This document shows, piece after piece, positions 2,373-22,280 of a stretch of DNA of 64,000 bases (the first letter of the stretch is position 1; each line of letters opens with the position of its first letter). The DNA comes from Alphaproteobacteria bacterium (lineage in GTDB: Bacteria > Pseudomonadota > Alphaproteobacteria > Rs-D84), in the NCBI GenBank assembly GCA_017472065.1, contig JAFURB010000003.1, positions 16,524-80,523 of the forward strand, written 5' to 3'. The notes under the pieces are model-generated. The model did no database searches. It was not told where the DNA came from and was given only the letters and a program-made list of their open reading frames with translations. A program made the translations under genes and the position numbers.

Positions 2373-2374
2373 AC

Positions 2375-5885: not shown

Positions 5886-6253
5886 TGGCAGATTATGAAT
5901 TGGGCTATATGAAACCGCCTAAATCGGGACAGTTCAAACCAGGTCAATCTGGTAACCCAAAGGGGCGACCAAGTGGCAGCAAAAATATTTATAAATTACT
6001 GGATGACATTGTAAACGAAAAGATTCAAATGACCAAAAATGGCAAGCCAGTAAAAATAAGCAAAAAGCAAGCCATGCTATTACAGGCGACAAACAAGGCT
6101 GTGCAAGGCGATTTAAAAGCGTTGCAGACTCTGCTGCCTGTGATGGCAGAAGCAGACAATAAAAATGAAGAACTTGCCAAAGCAGCCACAGCTATTCGGC
6201 AGGACGACATAGAAATATTAAAACAGTATTTAAAGGAAAACAACAATGAATAA
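5885..6253 (+). CDS. Putative terminase small subunit-like protein (DUF5681-like)
   Basis: N-terminal KPPKSGQFKPGQSGNPKGRPSGSKN motif. Position is immediately upstream of, and overlapping, the large terminase. Start codon overlaps the stop of the preceding gene (ATGA). Confidence 0.4.
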   Translation: MADYELGYMKPPKSGQFKPGQSGNPKGRPSGSKNIYKLLDDIVNEKIQMTKNGKPVKISKKQAMLLQATNKAVQGDLKALQTLLPVMAEADNKNEELAKAATAIRQDDIEILKQYLKENNNE

Positions 6254-7697
6254 AGAAATTATGAATGCAATATTACGTACAGATTTTAAATCTTTTGTGG
6301 TAAAGGTGTTTAACGAGGTATCTCCTGGTTCACATTACCTGAACAATTGGCATATTGATGTCATTTGTGACGCAATTATGGATATGTACGAAGGGCGACA
6401 TAATCGCCAGATTATAAATATGCCACCGCGGTATATGAAAAGTATGATATGTTCAATCGCATTGCCGGCGTGGATACTGGGACATAACCCAAAGGCTCAA
6501 ATACTTTGTGTCAGTTATAATGATGAACTGGCAGAAAAATTCGCGATCAGTTGTCGTGACGTTATGCAATCGGATTGGTATCGTGAACTTTTCCCAATGA
6601 CACGTTTGCATCAATCCAGGCAGGCTGTAAACGATTTTGCAACCACACGTGGTGGCGGACGCATTGCCGCATCTGTTGGCGGAACATTGACCGGTCGTGG
6701 CGCAGATTGGATAATCATAGACGATCCACAGAAATCTGTGGATGCAACATCGGAAACCCAGCGTGCCAAATTGAATGAATGGTATGGCTCTACGTTATAT
6801 TCGCGTCTTAATGACAAGGCAAATGGCAAAATTATACTGGTAATGCAACGTCTGCATCAGGATGATTTAACTGGACATTTGTTGGAGTTGGGCGAACAGT
6901 TCAATATCATTAAGCTGCCCATTATTGCAACCGAGGATGAAAACTGGATGGTCAAGAATCGCATTTCTGGTAAAGTGCGAGTAATTACGCGTGCCAAGGG
7001 CGAATTGCTGCACACAGAACGTGAAAATATGGATGTTGTGACAAGCATAAAGAACTCTATGGGTGAAAATGCATTTGTTGCCCAATATCAACAAGATCCA
7101 TGTCCACCAGAAGGCGGAATTATTAAAGAGTCATGGCTACACTACTATACCAAGGCACAGGGTGAATCCATAGATCCAGCTAAGTATTGCAGAATTTTTC
7201 TTAGCTGGGATACAGCCAATAAAACTGGGCCAAATAATGCGTATTCCGCTTGCTGTGTTATATTGATGACACGCGAATCCAATATGTATAAATACTACCT
7301 GCTAGATGTTGTTCGTGGCAAATGGGAAATGCCCGACCTTATCAGACAAGTGGAAAAAGTGTATTGCTATTGGAAGTATGAAAAGGGTGGACAACATTTG
7401 GTAAGATTGTTAATAGAAGATAAGGCGAGTGGAACGCAATTGATACAAATGCTAATGGCACAAAGAGACCGTCATGGATACAATTTTGCAATTGAACCAA
7501 TAAAGCCCGATACAGATAAGACATCAAGATTAATGGGGGCTAGTGCTTATATAGAAAACGGTACATTACGTTTTCCACAAGAGGCGCCTTGGTTGTCAGA
7601 TTTCAAGAAAGAACTATTAGGATTCCCTAATGGTAAATACAAAGACCAAGTTGATGCCTTAACACAATGTATAAATTATGTGGTACAACATTCATGA
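6246..7697 (+). CDS. Phage terminase large subunit (483 aa)
   Basis: Terminase_6/GTA-type TerL features: ...NNWHIDVICDAI..., ATPase Walker B IIIDDPQK, C-terminal nuclease region ...FLSWDTANK... DQVDALTQ. Confidence 0.8.
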   Translation: MNKEIMNAILRTDFKSFVVKVFNEVSPGSHYLNNWHIDVICDAIMDMYEGRHNRQIINMPPRYMKSMICSIALPAWILGHNPKAQILCVSYNDELAEKFAISCRDVMQSDWYRELFPMTRLHQSRQAVNDFATTRGGGRIAASVGGTLTGRGADWIIIDDPQKSVDATSETQRAKLNEWYGSTLYSRLNDKANGKIILVMQRLHQDDLTGHLLELGEQFNIIKLPIIATEDENWMVKNRISGKVRVITRAKGELLHTERENMDVVTSIKNSMGENAFVAQYQQDPCPPEGGIIKESWLHYYTKAQGESIDPAKYCRIFLSWDTANKTGPNNAYSACCVILMTRESNMYKYYLLDVVRGKWEMPDLIRQVEKVYCYWKYEKGGQHLVRLLIEDKASGTQLIQMLMAQRDRHGYNFAIEPIKPDTDKTSRLMGASAYIENGTLRFPQEAPWLSDFKKELLGFPNGKYKDQVDALTQCINYVVQHS

Positions 7698-7730
7698 ATC
7701 AATGGGGTGTTCGCCCCATTGATTATTTGT
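7697..7730. terminator. Bidirectional terminator between the terminase (+) and a lipoprotein gene (-)
   Basis: Hairpin AATCAATGGGG-TGTTCG-CCCCATTGATT flanked by T and A runs. Confidence 0.55.
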
Positions 7731-8289
7731 TGTCGGCAGGTGCCATCAATTTGTTCTTGCATTCAGAATGCCAGTTGGCCGTATAAACAAAGTGACCGCA
7801 ATAACTTTTGGTTATATCTTTTCTATCTGTATAACAATAGTTTGTTATGTCAACAAACCTGCCATCGTTTAGTCTTTCGGTGCGTATGGTTTTATCAAAC
7901 ATAAAATCTGCATTTTTGAACTGTTTTATGCTCCCAACCGTCCACTTATCCATTGTGCCAATATTACGAACTCTAAGATGTTGTTGGTCCATGCACTCAT
8001 CTATAGAATTTCCTGCGGAACATTCTAACAAACTGGTATAGAAAACTTGTCCTTGCTCTTTCTTGTTGACCCAGGGTTGGTCAACAGATTTTTCACTAAC
8101 AAGGACAATGTATCTACCTGGACTTTCTTCTGTGTGTATAATTGTTTTATCAGAATATCCCATACATTCTTGATATTTAGCCAATGGTTTTTCTATGGGG
8201 ATGTTCGGTTTTGTATTGTCGGATATAGGGGATTGAGCCGATCCGCAACCAAATAATATTATTGTTAGAACGGGTGATAATTTTTTCAT
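7723..8289 (-). CDS. Lipoprotein (188 aa)
   Basis: Signal peptide with lipobox MKKLSPVLTIILFGCGS. Confidence 0.6.
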   Translation of the reverse strand: MKKLSPVLTIILFGCGSAQSPISDNTKPNIPIEKPLAKYQECMGYSDKTIIHTEESPGRYIVLVSEKSVDQPWVNKKEQGQVFYTSLLECSAGNSIDECMDQQHLRVRNIGTMDKWTVGSIKQFKNADFMFDKTIRTERLNDGRFVDITNYCYTDRKDITKSYCGHFVYTANWHSECKNKLMAPADNK

Positions 8290-8304
8290 TGTTATTTCCC
8301 CTTT

Positions 8305-8850
8305 TTATCTTTTCCTGTCTTTGTACGGAACGCGCTTATCTCTACCAGACAAACAGTTTAATTTAAAATAACAATTTTTATCTAACAAACATATTGGACT
8401 AAATAATACGGAAAGTGGTGTATAAACAATTGTTGCACCGCCGCCACAAAAAAATGATTGGTAATATTTTCTTTCTTCTTTTGGAAAGTCTGTGTCGTAT
8501 TTTTCTAATGCTTCCTTATACTTTGCCTCTAGTCCCATATCATTATCAATTGTATAATCTGGAACGGTTTTTACAGTTCCCCATGCAGACGTATAACGAT
8601 ATACTCCAACTTGTTTTACACCGTCTACAGAATACACCCCACCATCCACAATATCCGACTTCATGTTGTCTATTGTAAAATGCCCTAAGTTATTCCTGTA
8701 ATACGCAAGAATTTCATCGTCATCAATAACCTGCAATACCTCTATATTGTCGGCAGTATAATCTGGTTGCAATTTTGGAGCATCGGGGTAATCTGGTTCC
8801 ATACACCCAGTTAAAGCTAGTGCTAAAAAAGATAGATTAAACTTCTTCAT
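8305..8850 (-). CDS. Lipoprotein (181 aa)
   Basis: Signal peptide with lipobox MKKFNLSFLALALTGCME. Confidence 0.6.
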   Translation of the reverse strand: MKKFNLSFLALALTGCMEPDYPDAPKLQPDYTADNIEVLQVIDDDEILAYYRNNLGHFTIDNMKSDIVDGGVYSVDGVKQVGVYRYTSAWGTVKTVPDYTIDNDMGLEAKYKEALEKYDTDFPKEERKYYQSFFCGGGATIVYTPLSVLFSPICLLDKNCYFKLNCLSGRDKRVPYKDRKR

Positions 8851-8861
8851 CTTATCCGTCC

Positions 8862-9110
8862 TTATTTTGGTAGCTTATATTTTTTGCTGTTTTTAATATA
8901 AATATCACGCACAATCCATAAAGCACCATTAATGACTTTTTTGCTTTCTTCTGTGGAACCAAGCCATCTCCAACCGCGTTTGGATACGCCTGTTTTTTCG
9001 TTTGGTCTTTTGGCGTCTATACCGTCAATATATGAATAAGTGCTTTCTTGAATCAGAATGTTGTCAGAAATCTCAATAGTAGAGTGTAATACACCTGCGG
9101 ATTTTGCCAT
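8862..9110 (-). CDS. Small hypothetical protein (82 aa)
   Basis: ORF co-oriented and tightly spaced with the upstream lipoprotein genes. No recognisable motif. Confidence 0.35.
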   Translation of the reverse strand: MAKSAGVLHSTIEISDNILIQESTYSYIDGIDAKRPNEKTGVSKRGWRWLGSTEESKKVINGALWIVRDIYIKNSKKYKLPK

Positions 9111-9124
9111 TGGCTTCTCCCTTT

Positions 9125-9350
9125 TTATAAATTAATGACCGCCAACGGAATTGACGGTCGGGGAGTTGGTGTCAGCAAACGAATGCTCCGCAGCCTTCGG
9201 GCAAGCCCTGTTTTATAGCAAACGGCTCCCCGACCAAAGTCGGGGGATTTTAACGACAAATGCCGCGTCTGCGGGCCACCACAGCCCCGAACCCAATTCC
9301 CATTGGATTCAAACAATAACTTAGCATTAATATGTAGACAAATCAAGCGA
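9125..9350. other. GC-rich, hairpin-dense intergenic segment; candidate structured RNA or regulatory element
   Basis: About 58% GC in a ~38% GC context. Several stem-loops, e.g. GGCTCCCCGACC-AAA-GTCGGGGGATTTT and GACCG-N13-CGGTC. The 73-aa ORF the track calls here is basic and low-complexity and looks spurious. Confidence 0.25.
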
Positions 9351-9424
9351 GTAATAGTTTATTCTATGGAATTTTTAATAAATTTATGCTATGTTCTCGA
9401 TGGTAGCCAAGGAATTATGCATAA

Positions 9425-10168
9425 ATGCTATTTAATGTTACGCTATTTTCGGAAGATAATATAACAATCAGTGTCTTTGATGTAGAGGAACTTTCCGATG
9501 AACTAAAGTGCTTTATTGATGACAATATTCATCAAATATGCCTAGGAGAACCGGGTGATTTGTCGTGCGTAAAATTAGATTTAAGAGATAGAATTAATGG
9601 ATGGAATGATGATAACAAAAAAATAGGTTCTATTGCGGAATTTTTTGTGCATTTATACTTAAAACATGAAGGTTATCAGCAAGAATGCTTGTTTTTTAAT
9701 CTCGAAGAAAGGTCATTAAAAAAAGGCTTTGATGGCGTGTATTCTATTGGAGAGCAGCTTTGGTTTGTGGAAAGCAAGTCTGGTTTTATAAGCACGTCTG
9801 GAGTAACACATGCATCTAAGATACGAGAAGCTTATAATGATGTAAAAACAAAAATAACTACTGGTGTCAGTAATAATCCATGGTTAAACGCTTATAATCA
9901 TGCAAGGGTTGTAAAAACTAAAAAAAAGTTACGTGATACTTTAAAACAAATATCTGATGATTTTATTAATCATAGATATCAGACGATTGATGATAAAAAC
10001 ATAATACCGTGCGCAACTATATTCTTAAATGGTATATGGCAGCCACAAGATCATGCAAATATTATAGAGATGGTAAAAAGTATATCAACATTACATGGGA
10101 AAAATATTCATGCCATTTGTATAACACAAAATAGTTATGAAGTCTTTATGCGGTATTTAGAGGATTAA
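9425..10168 (+). CDS. HamA-like protein (putative PD-(D/E)xK nuclease, DUF1837-like); first gene of a Hachiman-like pair
   Basis: 247 aa. ...GFDGVYSIGEQLWFVESKSG contains a D...E-x-K arrangement. Its stop overlaps the start of the downstream helicase (TAAAATGAG). The family assignment rests on size, motif and gene context only. Confidence 0.4.
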   Translation: MLFNVTLFSEDNITISVFDVEELSDELKCFIDDNIHQICLGEPGDLSCVKLDLRDRINGWNDDNKKIGSIAEFFVHLYLKHEGYQQECLFFNLEERSLKKGFDGVYSIGEQLWFVESKSGFISTSGVTHASKIREAYNDVKTKITTGVSNNPWLNAYNHARVVKTKKKLRDTLKQISDDFINHRYQTIDDKNIIPCATIFLNGIWQPQDHANIIEMVKSISTLHGKNIHAICITQNSYEVFMRYLED

Positions 10169-10169
10169 A

Positions 10170-12602
10170 ATGAGTGATTCTAGAAAAATATCGAATCTGA
10201 AAAGTATTAAGCCTGTTCGGGCCGTTCTAAAAAAATTATTTTTATCAGATGATACTATTGACGAAGAAGAAAAGCAATTTTTATTAACCGTAGCGATTGT
10301 ATTGCTTAATCAATATCAAGCGGATACATCACACAAAACAGCTTTTGAATTGGCGTATTTTATTGTTTTAAAATATTCAATTATGTTTCAAGATTGGCAA
10401 CCTTTGTATGATTTTGCACTAAATTATGGCTTTTATCCAATCTCTAATGCGATTATTAATAATAAAGGGATGCTTCCTAATATCACAACAGAAACTTTGA
10501 CCGTGGCAACAGAGTCTCAGTTTAAACATAATGATATTGTAGAAACGAAAGAACAAAATAGATCCAGAAGGGGGGTGTTAGCTACAGATGAAGCGTATGT
10601 AAGCTATGTTGCTCCAACATCTTTCGGAAAAAGTCAGGTTATTATTGAACATATAAGGCAAAATATAGCTTCTTATAACAAGTTCGCTATAGTTGTCCCC
10701 ACAAAATCATTGTTAATGCAAACATATAAAAACATAAAATCAGGTTTTACAAATGTTAGGGTATTAATACATGATGAAATGTATAGTGAAACCGATGAGA
10801 GATTTATTGCTGTATTTACTCAAGAAAGAGCATTGAGATTATTAGAAAAACACCAAAATATACATTTTGATGTTTTGTATATAGATGAAGCACATAAATT
10901 ATTAGAAAATTCAGATAGGAGTGTCTTGCTAACACGATTGGTAAGATTGGCAATGTATCGTAACAATCGCATAAAAATAATATATTTGTCCCCATTAATT
11001 CAAAATATTAATAATATTTCAATATCTGGTCAAAGTATAGAACCGCATAAAATATCAATTAACATAAAGATTCCTACGATTTATGAATATACAAATTCTG
11101 GAGATGTATTAATTTATAATCGATTTTTTGATGAATTTTATGCGAATGCTCATTTAGATGTTGATTATTTGCGGTATATAGAAACAAAATCAACAGATAA
11201 AAATTTTATATATTTGTACACTCCAATAAAAATAGAACGTTTTTCTAAAAGACTGTTTGAGTCTATAACGGAGATTCCTGTAAACGATGATGTTGTGCAG
11301 GTAATAGATAATCTAAATAAATATGTACATGAAGATTTTTATGTGTCTAAGTATTTGCGCAAGGGTATTATTTATATCCATGGAAAAATACCAGATGATA
11401 TAAAAGATTATTTGGAGTTCAAATTCAATACTATTAAAGAAATAAGATACTTGGTTGCAAACAATGTGATATTAGAAGGTGTAAATTTACCGTTTGATTC
11501 TTTGTTTATTATTGATTCACGGGGGCTAGATAAAAATTCATTAATAAATTTGATTGGCCGGGTGAATCGATTAAATATGGTATTTACAAGATCTATTGAC
11601 ACTCTATCAAAATTATTACCAGCAATACATTTTGTTGAAAATAATGAATTTTGTACTTGTAGTATGGCAAATAAAATCAAGCTGTTACAGACATCGGATT
11701 TTGTTGACGAGGTTGAAAACCCGCTATTGGATAGTTTTAATTTAGAAGCCGAAAAGAATGTGGAAAAACGTCATAAATGTGAAGAAACTATTAGAAATGA
11801 AAATTTGGTATTTTTAGAAACAGCAAGCGATGTACAAGTTCTAAAGCAAAATATGTTAAAACTTAGCATGAATGTGATATACAGCATAACAGACGAAGTG
11901 TGTGCCGACATTTTATCAAGAATTAACGGTTATAAAGAACAATATGGGATGCTATCCGATACAAAAAATGTATTTAACTTATTGTATCAGATATTCATAG
12001 AGCGGCTAGAGGAGACCATAAAGGATGAAGAATTTAAACGTTTGATAAATAATGCAAGTAGAGAGTATTATTATAAATTAATAGTAAAGCATAGAAAGAA
12101 GTCGTTAAAAGAGCAGATCTCTTTGACTGCCAGATATTTATATGGTCTTAAAAGAAATAGTGCCAATCCTCGTCTGTTCATAGGTTCTTCATACGGAGAG
12201 TGTGATGCTTTTGGTAATCCTTTTACAAATAAACATTTTTATATAGATGTTGGGGCAAAAAATTATTCTGAAATTGTAAATTTGTCTATAGTGAAGATAA
12301 AATTAGAGGAGGATTTTGTGAGTTTTAAACTGAATAAGTTCTTTCAGTTAATGCTGGATTATGAGCTTATATCAAGAGAGCTTTATAATGATTTAGTATA
12401 TGGCACTAATAACCCTTTGATTCTTATGTTGAGTAAACAAGGGCTAAGTCTGAATATAATAAACAAACTCATCAAAGATGAGCAATTGGGTAATTTATCA
12501 ATCGATAATTTTGGGAATTTATCATATAATGAACAATTTGCAGCATACAAAGAAACCTCTGATGACTTTTTTAAATTTGAATTAGATAAATTCTTACCAT
12601 AA
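10170..12602 (+). CDS. SF2 DExH-type helicase (810 aa), HamB-like; second gene of a Hachiman-like pair
   Basis: Walker A VAPTSFGKSQV, motif II LYIDEAHKL, motif VI LIGRVNRLN. The helicase core sits in the N-terminal half with a long C-terminal region, as in HamB. Confidence 0.6.
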   Translation: MSDSRKISNLKSIKPVRAVLKKLFLSDDTIDEEEKQFLLTVAIVLLNQYQADTSHKTAFELAYFIVLKYSIMFQDWQPLYDFALNYGFYPISNAIINNKGMLPNITTETLTVATESQFKHNDIVETKEQNRSRRGVLATDEAYVSYVAPTSFGKSQVIIEHIRQNIASYNKFAIVVPTKSLLMQTYKNIKSGFTNVRVLIHDEMYSETDERFIAVFTQERALRLLEKHQNIHFDVLYIDEAHKLLENSDRSVLLTRLVRLAMYRNNRIKIIYLSPLIQNINNISISGQSIEPHKISINIKIPTIYEYTNSGDVLIYNRFFDEFYANAHLDVDYLRYIETKSTDKNFIYLYTPIKIERFSKRLFESITEIPVNDDVVQVIDNLNKYVHEDFYVSKYLRKGIIYIHGKIPDDIKDYLEFKFNTIKEIRYLVANNVILEGVNLPFDSLFIIDSRGLDKNSLINLIGRVNRLNMVFTRSIDTLSKLLPAIHFVENNEFCTCSMANKIKLLQTSDFVDEVENPLLDSFNLEAEKNVEKRHKCEETIRNENLVFLETASDVQVLKQNMLKLSMNVIYSITDEVCADILSRINGYKEQYGMLSDTKNVFNLLYQIFIERLEETIKDEEFKRLINNASREYYYKLIVKHRKKSLKEQISLTARYLYGLKRNSANPRLFIGSSYGECDAFGNPFTNKHFYIDVGAKNYSEIVNLSIVKIKLEEDFVSFKLNKFFQLMLDYELISRELYNDLVYGTNNPLILMLSKQGLSLNIINKLIKDEQLGNLSIDNFGNLSYNEQFAAYKETSDDFFKFELDKFLP

Positions 12603-12610
12603 TAAAATAA

Positions 12611-12641
12611 AAATTCCCTGTTATTTGTTTAGGGAATTTTT
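12611..12641 (+). terminator. Terminator after the helicase gene
   Basis: Hairpin TTCCCTG-loop-AGGGAA followed by a T run. Confidence 0.45.
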
Positions 12642-12946
12642 TACGGGAAGTGGATAATATGCGACTTGGGCGTGGTGCAAAATTGGTTTTTGGGACAAAA
12701 ATGGCAAAATTTCCCTGTAAATTCCCTGATGTTGTATGCAAAAGACCGTAGAAAAGTCTTACTCCGCCAGGAAATTAAAATCAAAACCGCCCAAATTGGG
12801 CGTTTTGTTTTTGTGTTGACAGTTAAGAAAAAGCATATTAGCATTAGTAGCGTGACTTGTGATGACTAATGTTATCGCAAACATTATCCGCCAATGTGGA
12901 TAGATATTAAATAGGGTTCATCGCCCAAAACTCAAAGGAGTGAAAG

Positions 12947-13933
12947 ATGAAAAAAATCTACGACGATCCTAATATCGTTATATATTCAAAAACCGAAACA
13001 GATCCCGTTTTTCAAGAAATAAAAACATCTGATGGCAAATGTTTTAATACATCAAAACCGACTATTTATGATTTGGGAATTGGCCTTGGGGCTGCGGAAT
13101 TGATGTTTATAAACCCAAATACGGGCGAATGGCTTCATGGTGGTGATGGTGAAATTATACCAATAAGCACAAAAGCGAACAAAGTAGTGTTTAATGAAAA
13201 GGTATGGTCGTTAAGCGGGTTGGCAACACATTTGCAGAGCAAATATCCAGAATCTAAATGCCCAGAAGCTCAGGTATATGACTTTTTTGCATATGGAAGC
13301 AAAGCCGATACATTGGCAAAGAAAGAACGAGAATTTTTGGAAAAATACTATAAAATTTCCATACCAAAGGGGCGTCTTGAATTATTGGCAGAACAAAGGT
13401 ATTTGGCGGAACAAAAAAAATACGACGCAAATGATTTACCCATATTTGACGTACATAAAGATGTGTATAAAATCGTAGACTGGCAAAACGATGATTTGAC
13501 ATCTGTAAAGGGATTTAAATGGTCTATTGATGGCACAAAATTTGCTGGCGAAACACGAAAATTTAAAGAGATGTTTAAGCAAATCGTTTCTTGTTTGTAT
13601 AATCATATGCCACGGGTTTTGGATATTGAAATGATTCGCATATTGTCGGAATCTGATGCGTTATTTAATCCCACAATTAAAAAAATAATAGGTGTTTCTG
13701 GTGAAGTGCCTGTGGTAAATGGCAATATTGATGGCCTAGAGTTTTCTAATATTCCAAATAATCACAGACATATTGATACATATACGGACAGTATGTGGAT
13801 AGAAGTAGTTCCGGAGTGGCTTTACATTTGGGGGTTGTATTCCAATAATGATTTAAAAAAGAAGTTACAAATATTATTAAAATTATATGGAATAGAACCA
13901 AATATGTTAAAAATATCAATCCAAGAACACTAA
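12947..13933 (+). CDS. Hypothetical protein (328 aa); candidate island cargo
   Basis: Clean ORF with RBS aaggag, ending at a hairpin terminator. No recognisable domain. Confidence 0.5.
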   Translation: MKKIYDDPNIVIYSKTETDPVFQEIKTSDGKCFNTSKPTIYDLGIGLGAAELMFINPNTGEWLHGGDGEIIPISTKANKVVFNEKVWSLSGLATHLQSKYPESKCPEAQVYDFFAYGSKADTLAKKEREFLEKYYKISIPKGRLELLAEQRYLAEQKKYDANDLPIFDVHKDVYKIVDWQNDDLTSVKGFKWSIDGTKFAGETRKFKEMFKQIVSCLYNHMPRVLDIEMIRILSESDALFNPTIKKIIGVSGEVPVVNGNIDGLEFSNIPNNHRHIDTYTDSMWIEVVPEWLYIWGLYSNNDLKKKLQILLKLYGIEPNMLKISIQEH

Positions 13934-13939
13934 AATAAT

Positions 13940-13970
13940 AACACCGCTAAATGGCGGTGTTATTATTTTC
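13940..13970 (+). terminator. Rho-independent terminator
   Basis: AACACCGC-TAAAT-GGCGGTGTT followed by ATTATTTT. Confidence 0.65.
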
Positions 13971-13989
13971 AATTTTAACATAGTGTGTG

Positions 13990-14329
13990 CTACGTCTTGC
14001 GCCACGCCGTCGCAAACGCTTTCAATATCAGATGGTTGTTTCCTGTAATGCTTAGCGTGCCATTGTGTCCGCCCCTAAATCTGGTGTTGGCATATCGGCG
14101 CAGCACAACCGGTCGCACAATCGTCACATTATCGCTATTTACCATATATTCCATTGGACTGTTATTATGATTGATATGGTATGTAGATAAAAATGAATTG
14201 TACAACCGTGGGTTGATGTTGATGCAGAATATCAGTTGTTCTTGCGAATAAACTGCCTGTTCAATCATAACGCGAACCAATTCTCGTCTTTGCAGGTATG
14301 ACAGATCTTCCCACTCAATCCGTTTTAAT
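13990..14329 (-). pseudogene. Truncated internal fragment of a serine recombinase gene (copy 2 of the duplicated segment, 14002-14329)
   Basis: The 96-aa ORF and the sequence upstream of it are roughly 85-90% identical to residues ~335-440 of the recombinase at 2375-3967. The catalytic N-domain and the C-terminal end are both missing. Confidence 0.7.
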
Positions 14330-14357
14330 ATGCTGGTTGGCTTTTTGCAAGGTTAAG

Positions 14358-14465
14358 GAAAAAATAAAGCAGACACCGAAGTGTCTGCTTGAAATGGTGT
14401 CCACATTCACAAGAATGCTTCCTTATTAACGACTAGACATCTAATTCCAACTTGATTTTATTCGT
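14358..14465 (-). ncRNA. tracrRNA (trans-activating CRISPR RNA)
   Basis: Plus-strand 14433-14450 CTAGACATCTAATTCCAA is the exact reverse complement of the repeat core TTGGAATTAGATGTCTAG. The minus-strand RNA reads ...AAUCAAGUUGGAAUUAGAUGUCUAGUCGUUAAUAAGGAAGCAUUC...GCAGACACUUCGGUGUCUGCUUUAUUUUUU: anti-repeat, then UCGUUAAUAAGG (nexus-like; compare SpCas9 tracr AAGUUAAAAUAAGG), then an intrinsic terminator (hairpin 14369-14388 plus U run). The 5' end is not defined. Confidence 0.7.
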
Positions 14466-14573
14466 TAAGTCACCACTGGCATGATTATATCACTTGTATA
14501 AATAATGTCAAATAGTTTGATTTTATGCCCAATATTGTATACCATAATTACAAATTATTACAAAGGTGCGGAC

Positions 14574-17500
14574 ATGAAGTACAAACTTGGTTTAGATTTA
14601 GGCAGCACATCACTTGGTTGGGCTGTGGTTGAATTGGGGGATAATGATGAAATTTTGCGTTTGGTTGATATGGGTGTCCGCATCTTTCCAGATGGTCAGG
14701 AGCATTCGCCAACTGGCGTAAAGAGTTTGGCCAGTGTTCGTTCGGAAAAGAAACAGCAAAGACTTCAGACAGACCGTCGCAAGATGCGAAGAAAACAACT
14801 GTTTAGCAAATTGGTTGAAACAGGATTGTTACCGACAGATAAAGAAATGCTAAAAGAATTATTAAATCCTGGGATTGGAAATGGGAATCGAACCAATCCA
14901 TATGAATTGCGAAACAAGGCTGTTGAAGAACAAGTATCGTTGTATGAGTTAGGGCGTATTTTATGGCATTTATCCAAACATCGTGGATTTTCGGGTAAAC
15001 GAGATCAGGATATTGATATACAAAGTACAAAACAACAGGTCGAGCCATCAGAAACCGATAACGCCAAAGAAGCAAAAAATGTTAATAAAAGAATTGAACG
15101 GTTGCGCCATGAAATCGCAAGTGCAGGGGTTAAGACTTTGGGGCAATACTTACATAAGAAATATGAAGAAAACAAGTCCGTTCGTTTTACTGCGCTTGAG
15201 GCCAGTACAGGTCAATCATCTGGATTCCCCAGCAGGAAACTTTATCAAGAAGAATTTGAAACTATATGGAAAAAACAAGAAAAGTATTATCCAAATATAT
15301 TAAACGAGCAGTTAAAAAAAGAGTTACGTGATGATATAATGTATTTTCAGCGACCATTGGCACAGCAACCAGTCGGAAAGTGTAAATTTGAGAAGTCTGA
15401 AGATAGAATCGCAAAGTGTTATCCATTATATCAGGAATATCGAATTTTGCAGGATATTAATGATTTAGAATTGGATGGCACACCGTTACCTGATGAGTAT
15501 CGTATGGCAATCTATCATATGCTTATGAATCCTAATGCTGTTGATGAAATGATTGACGGAAATGGGCGATTGTCGTTTGATAAAATTCGCGAGCACTTGA
15601 ATATTATCGGCAGATTTAATTTGGAACATATTGGTAATCGTGGATTGTTGTGTAACAAGACAAACAAAGTTATGTCTTCTGATGCAGTGTTTGGTGACAA
15701 ATGGTTTGACTTTGATGCAGAAACCCAGGAAAAAATAATTTACGAGATTACGGCTTATCACAAGACAAAAAATCAAAGTAAAGAAGCTCTTCAAGAGATG
15801 GGGATAAAAGATGATGCATTGATTGAACGCTTGCTAAAAAAACACTCTTTGTTGACCAAAGGCTATTCTGAATTGTCTGCGATGGCAATAAAAAGGGTGT
15901 TGCCAGCCATGAAAAATGGAAAAAAATGGCACGAAGCGGCAGCGGAGAAATACGGAAAACACACGGTTGTCAGACCGTATTATACATTTGGGTATAATCC
16001 ACCCAAGCAATTACCAGACTACAGAAAATTATTTCACGAATCTCTTACCAATGGAAAAATTGGCAATGTGACAGTGCATATTGGCTTAAATCAATTGCGT
16101 GCAGTTATTAATGCCTTGATAGAAAGATACGGTCATCCATATAGCATAGCCATTGAAATGGCGCGTGAATTAAAAATGGGTAAAAAGGCATTGGATATAT
16201 ACAGGCGAAAACAATGGCAAAACCAAAAGTTTAATATAGATGCCCGCAGAAAAATTAACGATGTCTTGGGACGTTCGTATGATAGTGCTGTGTCTTCTGG
16301 TGAAATGGAAAGGTATAAAGTATGGTATAACCTAAATCCGAAAAACGAAAATCAAAGGTATGACTGGTATGATTCTTCTGATACCCCATTGATAAGTTTA
16401 CGTGATGCCTTGTCATCGGAATATGAAATTGAACACATTATTCCACGGTCAATTGGTGGTGATGATACATGGGCAAATAAAATTTTGACCAGAAAGGATC
16501 ATAACTTAGCCAAAGGTAACATGTTGCCATATCAATATTTGTCAGAAAGCCAGCTGGCACGTGCAAAGCGCTGGGCCAAAGATTCAGATGATGTCAGAAA
16601 GACAGAATCTCAGCGCAAGGAAGAAGAAAAAGCAATTAGAGCAGGTAAACCGGTTCCTTTTGTGTTTAATTCGTTTGCGTGGCGTTTTGAATCTAATGCT
16701 GGTTCGCACATAAACAAAGATTTCAAATCACGCGATTTGAATGATACCCGCTATTTGTGCAAGGTGGCACGTGATTATTTATCATATATTTGTGTTGGTT
16801 ATTCTCATGCAGAAAAACAGCGAACCCCTTATGTTATTGCCAGTAATGGTACGATGACCAGTTTATTCAAAGATATATGGGAATTAAATGACTGTTTGCC
16901 TTATGATTATGATAAGTGGTCAATTCAGGATTGGCAACGTGATATTATGAAACAAAGAATCTTTGAACGTCTGTTCAAAGATGATCCGGAATTTGGTGTG
17001 TATGATAAAGAAAAAACAGCAAGCAAGGCAAAACAAGATGCCGAAAAAAAGCAAATAGAAGAGGAATTAAAAAATACGCCCGATTCAGAGTTTCTGAAAA
17101 TATCTAGCAGAAAGAAAGACCGAACCAACCATTATCATCATGCTCTGGATGCATTTGTGATTGCATGTTTGGACAACAAAATGGTGCAAGAAATCAATGC
17201 GCGCGCAAACGAATTTGCGGACATGCGCGACAAGTGGAACAGGCAAAATGATGCAGACAAAGAAAAAAGCTTGCAACAGATTCGCAAAGAGCAAATTCAG
17301 AAAGAATACACTAAGCCATTTGGTGGGTTTGATAAAAATCTTTTGGCAAAAACTTTGGCTGATTTGGTGGTGGCAGAAAAACAGCAACCGGATAAATTGC
17401 AGCAGTATTTGTCAGGAAAAAGCAAAGGTGTTGCTTCTTTTACACAAGATACAGCATTTGGGATTGCTGATGAAGAATATTTTGATGATGGCTATATAAT

Positions 17501-18134
17501 GTTACGTGTGAACGGCAAAACGTCCAAGGCCGATTTGAAAACATTGGTGCCCGTGTTTAACAAACAGCATCCCGAATATAAAAGATTAAAACAGCAATAT
17601 ATTGATGCGTATGCCCAGTGGCGCACGGACAAAAAAGATCGCCAGAAAATAAGAAACTTGATGGCTTGTATATCACGTGACAAGGTATTCAAGTGGTTGG
17701 CCAGTGGTGGTAATTATGCGACTGAAATTTATACAAATGGCAAAAGCGCTGTTTGGTCATCGGATATTATGTCGAATTGGTGGGCTTTGCAACGCGGCGG
17801 TCGTTTCTGGTGGCGCGATGATTATCCAAATGGAAAATGCATAATGAAATTACGCATCGGCAGCAAGATTCGTGTAATGCATGAAAACGCAACACTTTTG
17901 AAAGAACAAAGAAATATTGGGAAATGGGTGATAAGTCAGATAGAACACGGTCGTGATTTGTTGTTTCGGGTCAAAAAGTTAACAGGTACAAACATTTACT
18001 TGACGCCGGTGCATGTCGCACTTGAAAAACCCGATGATACAAAAACATGGCAGGCCTCGGCACGTTCACTACAAAAAGTATCTGCACAGATTGTTGAAAT
18101 ATCTGTTCTGGGCGATGTTGTTGAACTAAAATAA
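14574..18134 (+). CDS. cas9: Cas9 endonuclease (1186 aa), type II-C-like
   Basis: RuvC-I MKYKLGLDLGSTSLGWAV; Arg-rich bridge helix RRKMRRKQLF; HNH YEIEHIIPRSIGGDDTWANKILTRKDHNLAKGN; RuvC-III NHYHHALDAFVIA. The track ORF starts 23 codons earlier; the ATG at 14574 follows RBS AAAGG and matches the conserved Cas9 N-terminus. There is no csn2 or cas4 in the locus. Confidence 0.9.
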   Translation: MKYKLGLDLGSTSLGWAVVELGDNDEILRLVDMGVRIFPDGQEHSPTGVKSLASVRSEKKQQRLQTDRRKMRRKQLFSKLVETGLLPTDKEMLKELLNPGIGNGNRTNPYELRNKAVEEQVSLYELGRILWHLSKHRGFSGKRDQDIDIQSTKQQVEPSETDNAKEAKNVNKRIERLRHEIASAGVKTLGQYLHKKYEENKSVRFTALEASTGQSSGFPSRKLYQEEFETIWKKQEKYYPNILNEQLKKELRDDIMYFQRPLAQQPVGKCKFEKSEDRIAKCYPLYQEYRILQDINDLELDGTPLPDEYRMAIYHMLMNPNAVDEMIDGNGRLSFDKIREHLNIIGRFNLEHIGNRGLLCNKTNKVMSSDAVFGDKWFDFDAETQEKIIYEITAYHKTKNQSKEALQEMGIKDDALIERLLKKHSLLTKGYSELSAMAIKRVLPAMKNGKKWHEAAAEKYGKHTVVRPYYTFGYNPPKQLPDYRKLFHESLTNGKIGNVTVHIGLNQLRAVINALIERYGHPYSIAIEMARELKMGKKALDIYRRKQWQNQKFNIDARRKINDVLGRSYDSAVSSGEMERYKVWYNLNPKNENQRYDWYDSSDTPLISLRDALSSEYEIEHIIPRSIGGDDTWANKILTRKDHNLAKGNMLPYQYLSESQLARAKRWAKDSDDVRKTESQRKEEEKAIRAGKPVPFVFNSFAWRFESNAGSHINKDFKSRDLNDTRYLCKVARDYLSYICVGYSHAEKQRTPYVIASNGTMTSLFKDIWELNDCLPYDYDKWSIQDWQRDIMKQRIFERLFKDDPEFGVYDKEKTASKAKQDAEKKQIEEELKNTPDSEFLKISSRKKDRTNHYHHALDAFVIACLDNKMVQEINARANEFADMRDKWNRQNDADKEKSLQQIRKEQIQKEYTKPFGGFDKNLLAKTLADLVVAEKQQPDKLQQYLSGKSKGVASFTQDTAFGIADEEYFDDGYIMLRVNGKTSKADLKTLVPVFNKQHPEYKRLKQQYIDAYAQWRTDKKDRQKIRNLMACISRDKVFKWLASGGNYATEIYTNGKSAVWSSDIMSNWWALQRGGRFWWRDDYPNGKCIMKLRIGSKIRVMHENATLLKEQRNIGKWVISQIEHGRDLLFRVKKLTGTNIYLTPVHVALEKPDDTKTWQASARSLQKVSAQIVEISVLGDVVELK

Positions 18135-18464
18135 TTGTAATTGATTGGGGCGTTGTGCCAGTGCGGTTGGCATCTCGGCCTTGTCCAGGTGGATTATGTC
18201 CCCAAATTGGGTGTCTGTAAAGAACAGAATATTCACGTCCCCCGTACACGGGTTGTTGCGTTTTATTGCCCGGATATATTTTTGTGAATTTTCGCGTGTA
18301 CCTGTAAATCGCATATATACAGAGTATTGCGCCATCGAAAATCCCATGTCTTGCAGGAAATTACGAAACTGGCTTGCTGCGCGCCGTTCCTGTTTCGTTT
18401 CGGTCGGTAAATCGAACATAACCATCATCCACATGTACTTTAATCCATCAGTTCTGTATGACAT
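18126..18464 (-). CDS. cas2: Cas2
   Basis: MSYRTDGLKYMWMMVMFDLPTETKQERRAASQFRNFLQDMGF matches the type II Cas2 N-terminus (compare MSYRYMRMILMFDMPTDT). The 3' end overlaps the cas9 stop region by 9 bp, convergently. Confidence 0.85.
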   Translation of the reverse strand: MSYRTDGLKYMWMMVMFDLPTETKQERRAASQFRNFLQDMGFSMAQYSVYMRFTGTRENSQKYIRAIKRNNPCTGDVNILFFTDTQFGDIIHLDKAEMPTALAQRPNQLQLF

Positions 18465-19383
18465 TTTCAAAATCCAATTTATTTTTCTTTTCACTCAGGG
18501 AATTTACAAAATTCCAAACATCGCGTTGCATAATATTTATCAATGGTGAAAATCCAGCGCGTGTTTTAATCTCGGATTCTAAAATCATCGCCATTTGACG
18601 TTTGTCATCTGGTGTTAATTCGCGCGTTTGGTCGTCTGAACCTTGAAAAATCTGATATACAATTGCATCTACGATTGGGCGATATGGTTCCATTAAATCA
18701 TCAACCAGGCACATTGGATTTAGTTGGTTGTGGTGCTGTATTCCATATGACGGGTTTAGTCCTGCTGCAACCACCAAACGTGCCATTGCGCCCCTAATAA
18801 TTGCATATCCATAGTTTAAGAAAGCATTAATTCCACCCATCGTATGTATGCGTAAGAATCCGCCACCGAACAGGGCGGGAAAATACATGCGGGCGGCGAT
18901 TCCTTCTATATTACTGGTGTCACCAGATTGTACAACTGTTGGCAGATTTTTGATTTTGTTATCCAATCCGAAATAGTCCAATACGCGTGATTGGTTTCGA
19001 ATTTTTTCCTGAACAATCGTTTTCCATAATTGTTTTTGTAGTGGCTTGGATGAATTGACCTGTGTTTGCTGTACGGTCATTTGTCGTGTTTGTCCGATCA
19101 ATGGCGTCATTATTCCCACCGGATTATAGTTGTCGCCAATGATGATTAAAGGGATTCCATTGTCGCATAATTGGGTCATAAGATTTTGTGTAAATAAAAT
19201 GGCACGGCCTGTTGCCATTACGGCACAAATAGAATCCATTGGAACCTCGGCCAATGTGATGCCGCGTTCTTTGATGCACAAGAAACCACGGCGTGCCGTC
19301 AATTCGCGATTGTTATTAGAAATTTCAATAATGTTTGTTTGCATATCTGTTATATAAGCACAAAATATTGATTTGTCAACCAT
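18448..19383 (-). CDS. cas1: Cas1 integrase
   Basis: Type II Cas1 hallmarks: ...SGDTSNIEGIAARMYFPALFG..., ...NYGYAIIRGAMARLVVAAGLNPSYGIQHH..., ...DLMEPYRPIVD... The start may instead be the internal Met MQTNII at about 19344. Confidence 0.9.
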   Translation of the reverse strand: MVDKSIFCAYITDMQTNIIEISNNNRELTARRGFLCIKERGITLAEVPMDSICAVMATGRAILFTQNLMTQLCDNGIPLIIIGDNYNPVGIMTPLIGQTRQMTVQQTQVNSSKPLQKQLWKTIVQEKIRNQSRVLDYFGLDNKIKNLPTVVQSGDTSNIEGIAARMYFPALFGGGFLRIHTMGGINAFLNYGYAIIRGAMARLVVAAGLNPSYGIQHHNQLNPMCLVDDLMEPYRPIVDAIVYQIFQGSDDQTRELTPDDKRQMAMILESEIKTRAGFSPLINIMQRDVWNFVNSLSEKKNKLDFENVIQN

Positions 19384-19472
19384 AAGTAAGTTTCTTATAA
19401 AGAAAAAATAGCAAAACGAATCGATTTTTTGAATAAATTTGATTGTTTTTTGATTTTAGATATAACATAAAA

Positions 19473-19497
19473 GCCCCAGGAATCTGGGGACTTTTGT
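19473..19497. terminator. Hairpin/terminator between the CRISPR array and the cas1 start
   Basis: CCCCAG-GAAT-CTGGGG, with a T-rich tract on the plus strand (CTTTTGTG) and also on the minus strand (CTTTTATG). Confidence 0.45.
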
Positions 19498-19504
19498 GCT
19501 ATGG

Positions 19505-21786
19505 ATTATATCAGATTGGAATTAGATGTCTAGCCGCAACGTAGTTAAAACAAAGGAGTAAAAAATGAAAATTATATCAGATTGGAATTAGATGTCTAGC
19601 CGCAACTCGGCACGTGTGATGTATTCGTCCAATTCGATTATATCAGATTGGAATTAGATGTCTAGCCGCAACGTACAAGGCGTTTATATGGCTTAAAAAT
19701 GGATTATATCAGATTGGAATTAGATGTCTAGCCGCAACGTATATATGCACATTCGGCGGTGCTACTGGATTATATCAGATTGGAATTAGATGTCTAGCCG
19801 CAACGAATGCTTTCCCCGCCGTCGGGTTTCCATGATTATATCAGATTGGAATTAGATGTCTAGCCGCAACTGGAAGATTGGGAGCGCCACGGTTATAAAT
19901 ATTATATCAGATTGGAATTAGATGTCTAGCCGCAACAGTTGGAAATCCAACGTGAAGAAATGGAAGTATTATATCAGATTGGAATTAGATGTCTAGCCGC
20001 AACTTCAGTGGCACAGCCGCGCGCACGCCATGAATTATATCAGATTGGAATTAGATGTCTAGCCGCAACCTGCTTTTTAGTGTGTTGTAATCCGCGGAAA
20101 TTATATCAGATTGGAATTAGATGTCTAGCCGCAACTTTTTGAATAGATTGTAATAACAGATATTTATTATATCAGATTGGAATTAGATGTCTAGCCGCAA
20201 CAGTACCACCAAAGAGAAATCGTCCGGAAACATTATATCAGATTGGAATTAGATGTCTAGCCGCAACTTTGCAACAGTATGTCACAAGGCGCGGTTTATT
20301 ATATCAGATTGGAATTAGATGTCTAGCCGCAACTAGGGCGCGCCAGTTATTCAAATGAACCTTATTATATCAGATTGGAATTAGATGTCTAGCCGCAACG
20401 CCACGATACAGACCCCCGCGCCGGTGTGAATTATATCAGATTGGAATTAGATGTCTAGCCGCAACCGACACACACATTATTATATATAACACTGGATTAT
20501 ATCAGATTGGAATTAGATGTCTAGCCGCAACATCGCACGGCTTGCCTTTTCACTAAACACAATTATATCAGATTGGAATTAGATGTCTAGCCGCAACGGG
20601 TGACATTGTTGCACACCGTAAGCAATTATTATATCAGATTGGAATTAGATGTCTAGCCGCAACCAATTTACCGGCAATTTCAAATGCAATTTGATTATAT
20701 CAGATTGGAATTAGATGTCTAGCCGCAACTCCTTATGCTTGTGGCGGTGTTGTTGGTTTATTATATCAGATTGGAATTAGATGTCTAGCCGCAACATATA
20801 ATTTGTCCCCGTTATGATTTTCTTTATTATATCAGATTGGAATTAGATGTCTAGCCGCAACGGATTATACCAAAAGTCATGTCCATGTTCAATTATATCA
20901 GATTGGAATTAGATGTCTAGCCGCAACATTCTGGTGAAAAGTTCATTGTTTATACCCATTATATCAGATTGGAATTAGATGTCTAGCCGCAACGTTTCCC
21001 GCCACCAGATGAATAAAAATTTTATTATATCAGATTGGAATTAGATGTCTAGCCGCAACGACCTCAATCCCCACGTCCGTGGTATAACCATTATATCAGA
21101 TTGGAATTAGATGTCTAGCCGCAACATTTGCGTACGAACACGATTTGAACGGCAAATTATATCAGATTGGAATTAGATGTCTAGCCGCAACTGATAAATT
21201 GCATTCCAAACGGCGGTAAATATTATATCAGATTGGAATTAGATGTCTAGCCGCAACTAGCAATCTGGGGAGATAAAAACATTATTGATTATATCAGATT
21301 GGAATTAGATGTCTAGCCGCAACGATATAAAAACTTAGGAGCACTTGATTTCAATTATATCAGATTGGAATTAGATGTCTAGCCGCAACATACTGATATA
21401 TTAAAGTCGATTCTTAACTATTATATCAGATTGGAATTAGATGTCTAGCCGCAACACTGAGTTAGGTCTTATTACTTTAGATGAAAATTATATCAGATTG
21501 GAATTAGATGTCTAGCCGCAACAGGAACCGACTACTGTTATTCACTTGACATATTATATCAGATTGGAATTAGATGTCTAGCCGCAACATATCTTCAAAT
21601 GCCATCGCATCCTTAACCATTATATCAGATTGGAATTAGATGTCTAGCCGCAACGTTACAAATGATGATTGATGATGCTCATTAATTATATCAGATTGGA
21701 ATTAGATGTCTAGCCGCAACCTCTGGCATTATCTGCACCATCTACACACAATTATATCAGATTGGAATTAGATGTCTAGCCGCAAC
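19505..21786 (-). CRISPR. CRISPR array: 35 direct repeats of 36 bp and 34 spacers of 29-31 bp; crRNA inferred to be a minus-strand transcript
   Basis: Plus-strand repeat ATTATATCAGATTGGAATTAGATGTCTAGCCGCAAC, period ~66 bp, first repeat 19505-19540, last 21751-21786. In crRNA orientation the repeat is GTTGCGGCTAGACATCTAATTCCAATCTGATATAAT. Strand is inferred from the tracrRNA anti-repeat orientation. Confidence 0.95.
21751..21759 (-). promoter_or_regulatory. Representative intra-repeat extended -10 element (TGATATAAT) at the 3' end of each repeat in crRNA orientation
   Basis: On the minus strand each repeat ends ...CTGATATAAT, which is TGnTATAAT. This would start transcription a few nt into the adjacent spacer, as described for Neisseria and Campylobacter type II-C arrays. 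Confidence 0.5.
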
Positions 21787-21981
21787 CGCGATGGTGGTGG
21801 TCATGTGCATATCAAAACGGGTCATCCCCGTTCGTGGTTACGGGGATAGTAATTATTGGTTGTAATCTTATTATGCTTGTATTCATAATTATGTTCAAGT
21901 GTCTTTTATAAGATGATTTTCATATGATGGGTATCTTTATACCTCTTTTCTTTGTGTGAAATATATGATATAATACCAAAC

Positions 21982-22278
21982 ATGAGAAAGACAATATTGG
22001 CAATTTTATTGCTGGGGTTGACTGGATGTATGTCTGGGACACCCAATGGTGAATATGTGGATGCACCTGTGGAATGTGCGGGTGATTGTTCTGGGGTGAA
22101 TTTTTCCATGCCAAATGGAAATGACCTGAAACTGGAAACAGATCGTCATGTTGTACATGTAACGGCGGATCCAAACACAAATTATGCATACTATGTATGG
22201 ACGGGGGATAAATCATACGATGATGATCCCGACATCATGGTCGAAAATGGCGAAGCCTATGTATTAACTGTTGAATAA
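21982..22278 (+). CDS. Small lipoprotein (99 aa)
   Basis: MRKTILAILLLGLTGCMSG lipobox. Followed by a bidirectional terminator. Confidence 0.55.
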   Translation: MRKTILAILLLGLTGCMSGTPNGEYVDAPVECAGDCSGVNFSMPNGNDLKLETDRHVVHVTADPNTNYAYYVWTGDKSYDDDPDIMVENGEAYVLTVE

Positions 22279-22280
22279 AA

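Follow-up and report, generated by a model that had tools for sequence, protein, structure and literature searches.

The islands of Dehalococcoides at ssrA, the gene for transfer-messenger RNA (tmRNA), are the closest described system to the locus analysed here. These islands carry a serine recombinase of ~540 residues, DsiB, encoded on the reverse strand by the left attachment site (attL), as well as a ParB-domain gene in the integration module, and show 20-bp repeats of the 3' end of the RNA gene; they are stacked downstream of the target, some of them without integration genes and apparently fixed (McMurdie et al., 2011; PMC3146451). The Islander and TIGER catalogues describe tandem arrays, or 'accretion', of integrative elements at transfer RNA (tRNA) genes and recognise integrase remnants, and in 2015 no integrase of the serine family was known to use a tRNA gene as its target (Hudson et al., 2015; PMC4383910). 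In the passages searched, a later paper by the same group (PMC12884075) is silent on serine integrases at tRNA genes, and a further literature search found no statement on the matter. Here we analyse a 328-bp fragment of a serine recombinase gene within a stretch of 64,000 nucleotides of an alphaproteobacterial genome (contig JAFURB010000003.1 of assembly GCA_017472065.1; hereafter the window), where it lies between an integrated element, element A, and a type II locus of clustered regularly interspaced short palindromic repeats (CRISPR) and Cas proteins. Element A belongs to a family of large serine recombinase (LSR) elements whose insertion site appears to be the tRNA-Ser(GGA) 3' end, beside rpoZ, in genomes of Candidatus Enterousia, the source organism of the window and a gut alphaproteobacterium known from metagenome-assembled genomes. 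We consider it likely that the fragment is the neutrally decaying integrase remnant of an older element, element B, which was trimmed at both ends by deletion and displaced by 11.6 kb by the newer element A.

Like the Dehalococcoides islands, element A carries an LSR gene on the minus strand by attL (530 codons) and a ParB_N-methylase gene, a likeness at the level of the published description, and it is bounded by repeats of a structured-RNA 3' end, 13 bp long in the window and 20 bp there. It differs in its target, which is a tRNA-Ser gene and not tmRNA, in having no second, small serine recombinase (DsiA), the position of which is occupied by a DUF2924 gene, and in a cargo of terminase genes and defence systems instead of dehalogenases. 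As in the Islander islands, an intact tRNA gene and a displaced 3' fragment mark the ends, the newer island is nearest to the tRNA, and damaged islands and remnants occur. Unlike those catalogued cases, which involve tyrosine integrases, element A has a large serine recombinase as its only recombinase, and the older relic is no longer marked by a displaced tRNA fragment of its own. The large serine integrases of temperate phages (phiC31, Bxb1 and the A118/LI class) consist of an N-terminal resolvase domain, a recombinase domain and a long C-terminal region. The window LSR shares these domains and the position of its gene at one end of the integrated element, but it has no Pfam zinc-ribbon match and no CxxC pairs were seen in it; it also differs in being encoded by a mosaic gene of exchangeable modules and in its tRNA 3'-end target with a 13-bp shared core. 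The window displays two signs of serial integration at a tRNA hotspot, namely an intact tRNA gene and its displaced tail flanking an integrase element, and the remnant of a second integrase gene beyond the far end. Both tandem islands and leftover integrase genes are familiar companions of tRNA and tmRNA genes, and the fragment as such is an ordinary genomic scar.

A putative relic of a second recombinase allele

Alignment of the window to itself with BLAST revealed a direct repeat between 2573-2900 (copy 1) and 14002-14329 (copy 2, the fragment), which extends over 328 bp at 90.24% identity with 32 mismatches and no gaps (E = 4e-126) and is in the same orientation in both places; no other long non-CRISPR repeat was found in that part of the window. 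This bears out a preliminary description of the locus, which had reported a repeat of ~330 bp at 85-90% identity, in the same orientation and lacking both ends of the gene in its second copy. The fragment corresponds to residues 356-465 of the intact recombinase only, and the catalytic part with the Resolvase and Recombinase domains (residues 6-276) is absent. The reading frame is open through all 110 codons, with an in-frame stop codon upstream and no ATG start. Nor is the fragment part of an intact gene in another frame, as it is overlapped by only two open reading frames (ORFs), one of 96 amino acids that begins with TTG in the recombinase frame, for which Pfam returned no match, and one of 61 amino acids on the opposite strand. 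With both the catalytic domain and the start codon gone, the fragment cannot encode an active recombinase.

The mismatches between fragment and copy 1 are distributed over codon positions 1, 2 and 3 as 5, 6 and 21, and the codon changes comprise 17 synonymous and 9 non-synonymous ones. It follows from this third-position bias that most of the divergence dates from a time when both were still functional genes. Against the LSR genes of seven other species, the fragment reaches 88-90% identity (90.3% to L010, 90.2% to L002 and 89.3% to L001), a level similar to that with copy 1. Copy 1, over the same 328 bp, is 93-94% identical to its orthologues in other species and only 90% to the fragment, and in a comparison of LSR alleles the fragment stands alone on a long branch of its own. 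The comparison of the two copies that the preliminary description had called for therefore points away from a duplication: the fragment is the relic of a different allele and not a copy of the resident gene, and copy 1, far from being the source, itself lies in a chimeric gene. The same arrangement is present in at least five long contigs, and an independent short-read contig from another sample (L027) spans the fragment, the trans-activating CRISPR RNA (tracrRNA) and cas9 with 100% identity, so that an assembly artefact can be dismissed. A search of Rfam returned just a sub-threshold ohsC match at 13932-14026 (34.8 bits, with a gathering score of 50), which we attribute to a terminator hairpin.

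The composite nature of the resident gene is apparent from sliding-identity comparison of 17 LSR genes, which divides the family into a conserved catalytic part (residues 1-160), a middle part (~160-320) occurring in two types, and a C-terminal part (~330-530) likewise occurring in two types. The window LSR resembles L005-L009 and L014 in residues 160-320 (91-100%) and L001-L003 in residues 330-530 (90-98%), and it alone among the 17 genes combines middle type a with C-terminal type alpha. Judged by these identities, the gene that contains copy 1 is a chimera of exchangeable modules. The C-terminal module of the fragment is of type alpha, like that of the intact gene, and the fragment is therefore not the reciprocal product of the crossover behind the chimera. 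Module breakpoints in the LSR genes lie near residues 160, 325 and 465, and the LSR of L010 has a different tail beyond residue ~465. Throughout the related loci L001-L026, the LSR family is always paired with a DUF2924 gene.

The relic and its junctions in the window and in sister strains

A sister strain from another sample (L029) contains a fragment that shares 11 derived substitutions with that of the window, and the two are therefore the same relic. Since the split, the window copy has acquired seven private changes (three synonymous, four non-synonymous) and the L029 copy eight (five and three, respectively). Between the two strains the fragment region has diverged by 5.0% over 402 bp, ~3.5 times as much as the neighbouring gene, the adjacent 1.15 kb differing by ~1.4% with the protein unchanged. 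Small as these counts are, they are consistent with a pseudogene that evolves neutrally.

On the left of the fragment, positions 13959-14007 match the end of a Fic-family gene in L026, which encodes DUF4172, Fic and winged-helix domains (88% over 49 nt; 12 of 16 residues, the window reading RGARRSTHYVKIE in the Fic frame and L026 RGAGRSTHYVKTE). The Fic and recombinase homologies overlap in the 6 bp CCACGC (14002-14007), which indicates that this microhomology joined the final ~17 codons of the Fic gene to recombinase codon ~465. This join kept the terminator shared with the gene at 12947-13933, and L029 has the same join, the same end AWRKT* and an identical 12947-13933 protein. The latter gene has no match in Pfam, PHROG or PADLOC and, by its position, would represent left-end cargo of the older element. 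A reading of RKT* as the natural short C-terminus of the old recombinase, with its stop codon and terminator, was abandoned, as it is the out-of-frame 3' end of the Fic-family gene.

The right-hand side of the relic differs between the strains. In L029 the remnant is longer (residues ~305-465) and is joined to an FtsK-like gene via a GCG microhomology, and the 61 nt of its extension that were compared next to the junction match L001 at 100%. In the window, recombinase homology stops at 14329 and the T-run of the tracrRNA terminator reaches 14357, so that ~28-30 nt separate the two and the fragment does not directly abut the terminator, contrary to the preliminary description. A further contig with a 99% identical Cas9 (L038) matches the window only from 14360 rightwards, and across L038-L043 homology of the tracrRNA region begins at 14360-14372. 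L038 has the FtsK-like gene and three more genes (~2.5 kb) between the relic-linked point and the tracrRNA, and the distal sequence of L029 overlaps L038 (2868-3403) over 536 bp at 92.7% identity. Since L029 and L038 have ~2.5 kb of genes between relic and tracrRNA, the window lineage has lost a further ~2.6 kb, ending inside the T-run. The adjacency of fragment and tracrRNA is thus secondary and specific to the window lineage.

Extent and relatives of element A

The tRNA-Ser(GGA) gene ends in the 13-mer ACTCCGCCAGGAA, of which the 64-kb window has only two copies (1139-1151 and 12761-12773), even if two mismatches are allowed. The arm that precedes the second occurrence (12611-12760) is conserved in L014 (91%) and in L021, L023 and L025 (76-79%), and in these four loci, too, a copy of the tRNA-Ser tail forms its end. 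On the right-hand side of attR, the second core, positions 12774-12812 with their terminator hairpin align continuously with the terminator that follows tRNA-Ser in L045, and homologous hairpins are located directly after the tRNA or the core in L045, L046, L014 and L029. An empty site reconstructed from 1100-1151 and 12774-12830 gives one continuous alignment to L045 with a score of 120, compared to 54 for the actual right junction. These comparisons delimit a putative element A of ~11.6 kb (1152-12760), bounded by 13-bp repeats of the tRNA-Ser(GGA) tail, and leave outside it the 12947-13933 gene, the Fic-gene stub and the fragment, which lies 1.2 kb beyond attR in the same orientation as the resident LSR gene. 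The LSR is the sole recombinase between the 13-bp repeats, where Pfam and PHROGs identified no second ORF with a Resolvase domain. It is these repeats that form the true ends of the element, not the two recombinase copies, which the preliminary description had taken to bracket it; for annotation, the boundary of the current element belongs at 12773 and not at the fragment.

The right arm holds a hairpin (ATTCCCTG...AGGGAAT) and TTCCCTG repeats, motifs that may be protein-binding sites for integration or excision. A second kind of arm, consisting of CCATTGCGCCAATGTGGCGCAAATGGGAATCAGAC and a 19-nt tRNA-Ser tail, is present in L014 (2980-3083) and L003 (~12886) and marks a further family of elements at this tRNA; the L014 copy is flanked by the recombinase relic on one side and, on the other, by a cas9 unlike that of the window.

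On the DNA level, window positions 3988-9312 are 97% identical to L006 and positions 2930-7681 are 96% identical to L008, both from other species with an rpoZ flank far more diverged from that of the window than the element core. Positions 1134-2876 are 97% identical to L045 and L046, while their rpoZ flank reaches just 74%. The core proteins are 95-100% identical to those of an IMG/VR contig (L037), and the DUF2806 protein is 98-99% identical in L001 and L002 and 100% identical in L045-L047. Taken together, this suggests that blocks of the element were transferred between species recently. The Hachiman pair is not found in L006 and L008 and is specific to the window version of the element. 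Terminase genes are present in element A and no capsid or tail gene was identified in it, and it may represent a satellite or a defective phage.

The tRNA-Ser hotspot in related genomes

An intact or remnant LSR gene with a convergent tRNA-Ser gene just downstream was found in 19 of the 26 related loci (anticodon GGA in 16, TGA in 3), and the LSR family appears to integrate at the 3' end of tRNA-Ser. In L021-L026 the LSR gene is in the fragment-only state, and L014 contains a fragment as well as an intact gene. Extra displaced cores exist in L014, L023 and L045, with three cores in L014 and two arm-plus-core sites in L023. In L024, tRNA-Ser is followed by two genes, then by an alpha-type fragment that covers residues 360-526, by 7 kb of cargo and by a cas9 unlike that of the window. 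L014 shows this same relic displaced by an A-type element inserted between the tRNA and the relic; here, a 7-kb loss has fused fragment residue ~443 to an arm-plus-core site via an 8-bp microhomology and has brought the relic beside that cas9. L024 and L014 are an independent before-and-after parallel to the history of the window.

Several independent relics are cut within ~25 bp of each other (window 14329, L024 ~9997, L022 ~10003 and L045 3939), at residues 356, 360 and 364 and with different upstream flanks. Other relics are cut at residues 241, 256, 305, 317, 443 and 498.

The CRISPR-Cas locus

The locus to the right of the fragment has the features of a type II system, namely a Cas9 that contains HNH and RuvC domains, the cas1 and cas2 genes, an array of repeats, and a tracrRNA that has an anti-repeat and a terminator. 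Self-BLAST matches the anti-repeat to all CRISPR repeats, and the tracrRNA:repeat duplex, with the array read on the minus strand, has an energy of -41.1 kcal/mol. Between cas9 and the array, neither csn2 nor cas4 was seen. The whole locus lies outside element A. Its layout is unusual yet conserved in L038-L043, cas9 on the plus strand being convergent with cas2-cas1 and the array on the minus strand, and the tracrRNA being divergent from cas9. The tracrRNA promoter (14511-14484) overlaps the first possible cas9 start at 14505, and public gene calls start cas9 at 14574. A comparison of Cas9 with JGI metagenome contigs gave one weak match at 28% identity.

History of the locus and alternative explanations

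The preferred history begins with element B, or a stack of such elements, at the tRNA-Ser site, with the integrase gene pointing towards the tRNA and with the 12947-13933 gene and the Fic-family gene as cargo between the tRNA and the 3' end of the integrase gene, much as the DUF2806 gene is placed today. A deletion at the CCACGC microhomology would then have joined integrase codon ~465 to the last ~17 Fic codons, with the shared terminator retained, and the 5' part of the integrase gene would have been lost along with adjacent cargo. In the lineage of L029 this second cut would lie at codon ~305, joined to the FtsK-like gene, and in that of the window at codon ~356, ~30 nt from the tracrRNA terminator end, with the further ~2.6 kb removed. 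Finally, the newer 11.6-kb element A with its integrase, DUF2924, ParB-methylase, terminase and Hachiman genes would have inserted at the tRNA gene, duplicating the 13-bp tail and pushing the relic 11.6 kb away. We infer both this order of events, with A arriving after B, and the role of the serine recombinase as the enzyme that acts at the tRNA site. The surviving ~390 bp presumably persist only through lying between two functional terminators. The earlier proposal of a scar left by a related element at the same hotspot, through serial insertion and subsequent deletion, is upheld in this form by the separate branch of the fragment, its orthologue in L029 and its position beyond attR. Of the accompanying proposal that the repeat is a substrate for homologous deletion, what stands is that this is possible in principle; the substrate is a poor one, the copies being 90% identical and their longest stretches without a mismatch measuring 34, 27 and 25 bp, and no deletion product between the repeats was present among the contigs recovered.

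Several observations weigh against this history. The 5' truncations cluster at residues 356, 360 and 364, a pattern not expected from random deletion. The window contains neither a further displaced tRNA tail, at up to two mismatches, that would mark the far or left end of the older element, nor a second arm-like segment, and the older element is therefore left without recognisable ends; a 16-nt similarity at 22276-22291 (E = 0.59) was considered as a third core or arm and rejected as terminator-like. The joint at 14330-14359 is untraceable, with only chance-level short matches and none to recombinase genes or to what lies downstream of the tracrRNA in L038, so that the right junction is not a clean deletion of an arrangement of the L029/L038 type. 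L029 and L038 are themselves short contigs from other samples, and their linkage to each other is deduced from the 536-bp overlap. Among the contigs recovered there was no empty site from the same species, all long contigs being occupied; exact-protein look-ups with rpoZ, DUF2806, LSR, Cas9 and the 12947-13933 protein yielded no same-species contig without element A, and the junction pattern of a circular form (attP) had 0 matches in IMG/VR. With neither empty site nor circle seen, the mobility of element A and the assignment of the enzyme to the site rest on comparative anatomy. Some short-read contigs break at or inside the tRNA-Ser 3' end or core (the start of L029, the ends of L032 and L033, the start of L047), which could reflect a mixture of occupied and empty sites and proves nothing.

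The same orientation and gap-free alignment of the two copies would be expected if a piece of the resident gene had been copied 11 kb away in place and had then diverged. Such a segmental duplication is improbable to the point of being negligible, given that copy 1 is nearer to the orthologues of other species than to the fragment, that the fragment is equally distant from seven other alleles, that the third-position bias records divergence accrued under selection, and that L029 holds the same relic extended into sequence matching other alleles. Somewhat more can be said for an intragenic crossover around codon ~350 of the LSR gene, in the manner of SSV1-type integrases, by which each integration would leave the C-terminal piece of the incoming gene at the far end of the element and a mosaic full-length gene at the near end, the fragment being a by-product of integration and not of deletion: many alleles switch type at residues ~320-345, the chimera junction of the window is close to the start of the fragment, and three independent relics begin at residues 356, 360 and 364. 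Against it, the tRNA-tail direct repeat and conserved arm close the element 1.2 kb short of the fragment, a C-terminal module of type beta would be expected in the reciprocal product of the chimera where the fragment is alpha, the remaining relics are cut at scattered positions from 241 to 498, and the readable junctions (L029, L014 and the 3' end in the window) are microhomology joins to unrelated genes. An attachment site within the gene, considered on account of homology breaks at 2930-2964 and the clustered starts, was dropped on the evidence of the tRNA-tail repeats, the conserved arm and the wrong module type, and we regard the intragenic crossover as very unlikely. A function of the fragment, either as a truncated coiled-coil peptide that is made by read-through of the tracrRNA terminator and hinders related integrases or as spacer or terminator context for the tracrRNA, could explain why its 110-codon frame is still open, why it follows the tracrRNA so closely and on the same strand, and why the 96-residue TTG ORF exists. 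This, too, is hard to credit and in our view even less probable than the crossover, because the changes acquired after separation from L029 are non-synonymous as often as synonymous, divergence is ~3.5-fold that of the neighbouring gene, the extent of the fragment varies between strains, it has no ATG or family match and stands behind a strong terminator, and L038 keeps the same tracrRNA without an adjoining fragment.

The remaining alternative, raised in the preliminary description, is that the CRISPR-Cas locus arrived with the older element, of which tracrRNA, cas9, cas2-cas1 and array would have been the distal cargo and the fragment would be all that is left. In favour of this, the CRISPR locus is situated in the variable stretch that extends from tRNA-Ser to the HI0933-like gene, where none of the 26 related genomes has this Cas9, and relatives with 53-75% identical Cas9 have the locus elsewhere in the chromosome. 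The genes upstream of the tracrRNA in L038 (WYL, FtsK-like, 228-residue and 166-residue) have homologues in the LSR-element cargo of L004 and L001, and there is no attachment site between these genes and the tracrRNA. On the other side, no attachment core or conserved arm is present to the right of the array in the window, an attachment-like site in L014 separates the relic from the different cas9 of that genome and places that cas9 outside the relic, and the adjacency of relic and tracrRNA in the window arose secondarily. No genome was found in which an intact LSR gene is linked to a CRISPR locus of this type: where Cas9 is 53-75% identical, there is no recombinase nearby, and L038, at 99%, has cargo-like genes at most 5.3 kb upstream and no LSR. 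Delivery of the CRISPR-Cas locus by the older element is accordingly a minority possibility that we would call unlikely.

Features of the window

Positions, strands and supporting evidence of the features discussed are compiled in Table 1. Between the leader side of the CRISPR array and the HI0933-like gene, an ORF at 21952-22278 on the plus strand has a lipoprotein-like signal (MRKTILAILLLGLTGC); it is absent in the relatives compared and has no family match. A giant ORF of 3507 codons (53474-63997, minus strand) reaches almost to the end of the window and contains an internal repeat (61208-61429 and 63077-63298, 77% identity).

Table 1. Features of the tRNA-Ser locus, in window coordinates
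Feature	Position	Strand	Basis or remark
rpoZ	648-1040	+	
tRNA-Ser(GGA), target of the insertion hotspot	1057-1147	+	ARAGORN; Rfam tRNA, 58 bits
attL core ACTCCGCCAGGAA, tRNA-Ser 3' end	1139-1151	+	exact 13-mer
DUF2806 gene, left-end cargo between tRNA and recombinase 3' end	1362-2372	+	Pfam PF10987
Intact LSR gene of the current element, 530 residues	2375-3967	-	Pfam Resolvase and Recombinase
Copy 1 of the repeat	2573-2900	-	codons 356-465 of the intact LSR gene
Conserved core of the current element, DUF2924 gene to small ORFs	3957-9346	mixed	
DUF2924 gene	3957-4394	-	Pfam
ParB-methyltransferase gene (ParB_N-methylase)	4548-5885	+	Pfam, PHROGs
DUF5681 gene	5885-6253	+	Pfam, PHROGs
Large terminase gene	6246-7697	+	Pfam, PHROGs
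Four small ORFs	7723-9346	-	ORF list
Hachiman defence pair HamA/HamB	9425-12602	+	HamB: PADLOC 3.5e-47; HamA: precomputed Pfam PF08878
Conserved right arm ending in CCGTAGAAAAGTCTT	12611-12760	+	repeated TTCCCTG motifs
attR core, second copy of ACTCCGCCAGGAA	12761-12773	+	
Terminator hairpin displaced from the tRNA-Ser gene	12788-12802	+	terminator scan
Gene of 328 residues, outside the current element	12947-13933	+	linked to the relic in L029
Two-way terminator hairpin, common to the 12947-13933 gene and the Fic-gene stub	13932-13969	both	
Fic/DOC-family gene stub	13959-14007	-	last ~17 codons and downstream untranslated sequence
Fragment (copy 2), serine recombinase pseudogene remnant, C-terminal module alpha	14002-14329	-	codons 356-465, open frame, no start codon
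Joining sequence at the right-hand deletion/rearrangement junction	14330-14356		
tracrRNA	14357-14477	-	anti-repeat 14430-14463, terminator stem 14367-14390, T-run to 14357
tracrRNA consensus promoter	14484-14511	-	TTGACA-16 nt-TATAAT, 12/12 positions
Type II CRISPR-Cas locus	14505-21787	cas9 +, cas2-cas1 -	array of 36-bp repeats
cas9	14505-18134	+	Pfam
cas2-cas1	18126-19383	-	Pfam; Cas2 by precomputed Pfam
CRISPR array	19505-21787		self-BLAST
HI0933-like gene	22306-23463	-	Pfam

Implications for the hotspot and its elements

The fragment itself matters little: it is junk DNA in which the past of the locus can be read. Its use lies in showing that, in Candidatus Enterousia, serine-recombinase elements have landed again and again in the stretch from tRNA-Ser(GGA) to the HI0933-like gene, and that they deliver and then strand defence systems there: Hachiman, a Fic-family gene and possibly CRISPR-Cas9. 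It also provides a worked example of island fixation, in which microhomology deletions remove the integrase up to the nearest functional terminators. That a tRNA-Ser-specific serine integrase moves elements able to carry an entire type II CRISPR-Cas9 locus, from tracrRNA to array, as their distal cargo is a more demanding claim, and we hold it to be doubtful, and less probable still than delivery by the older element in this one case; if true, whole Cas9 loci would hop between gut Alphaproteobacteria into one tRNA hotspot and would become fixed there once deletions destroy the integrase. More interesting than the fragment is the family to which the locus points, that is, tRNA-targeting serine integrases with exchangeable modules that build a defence-rich hotspot.

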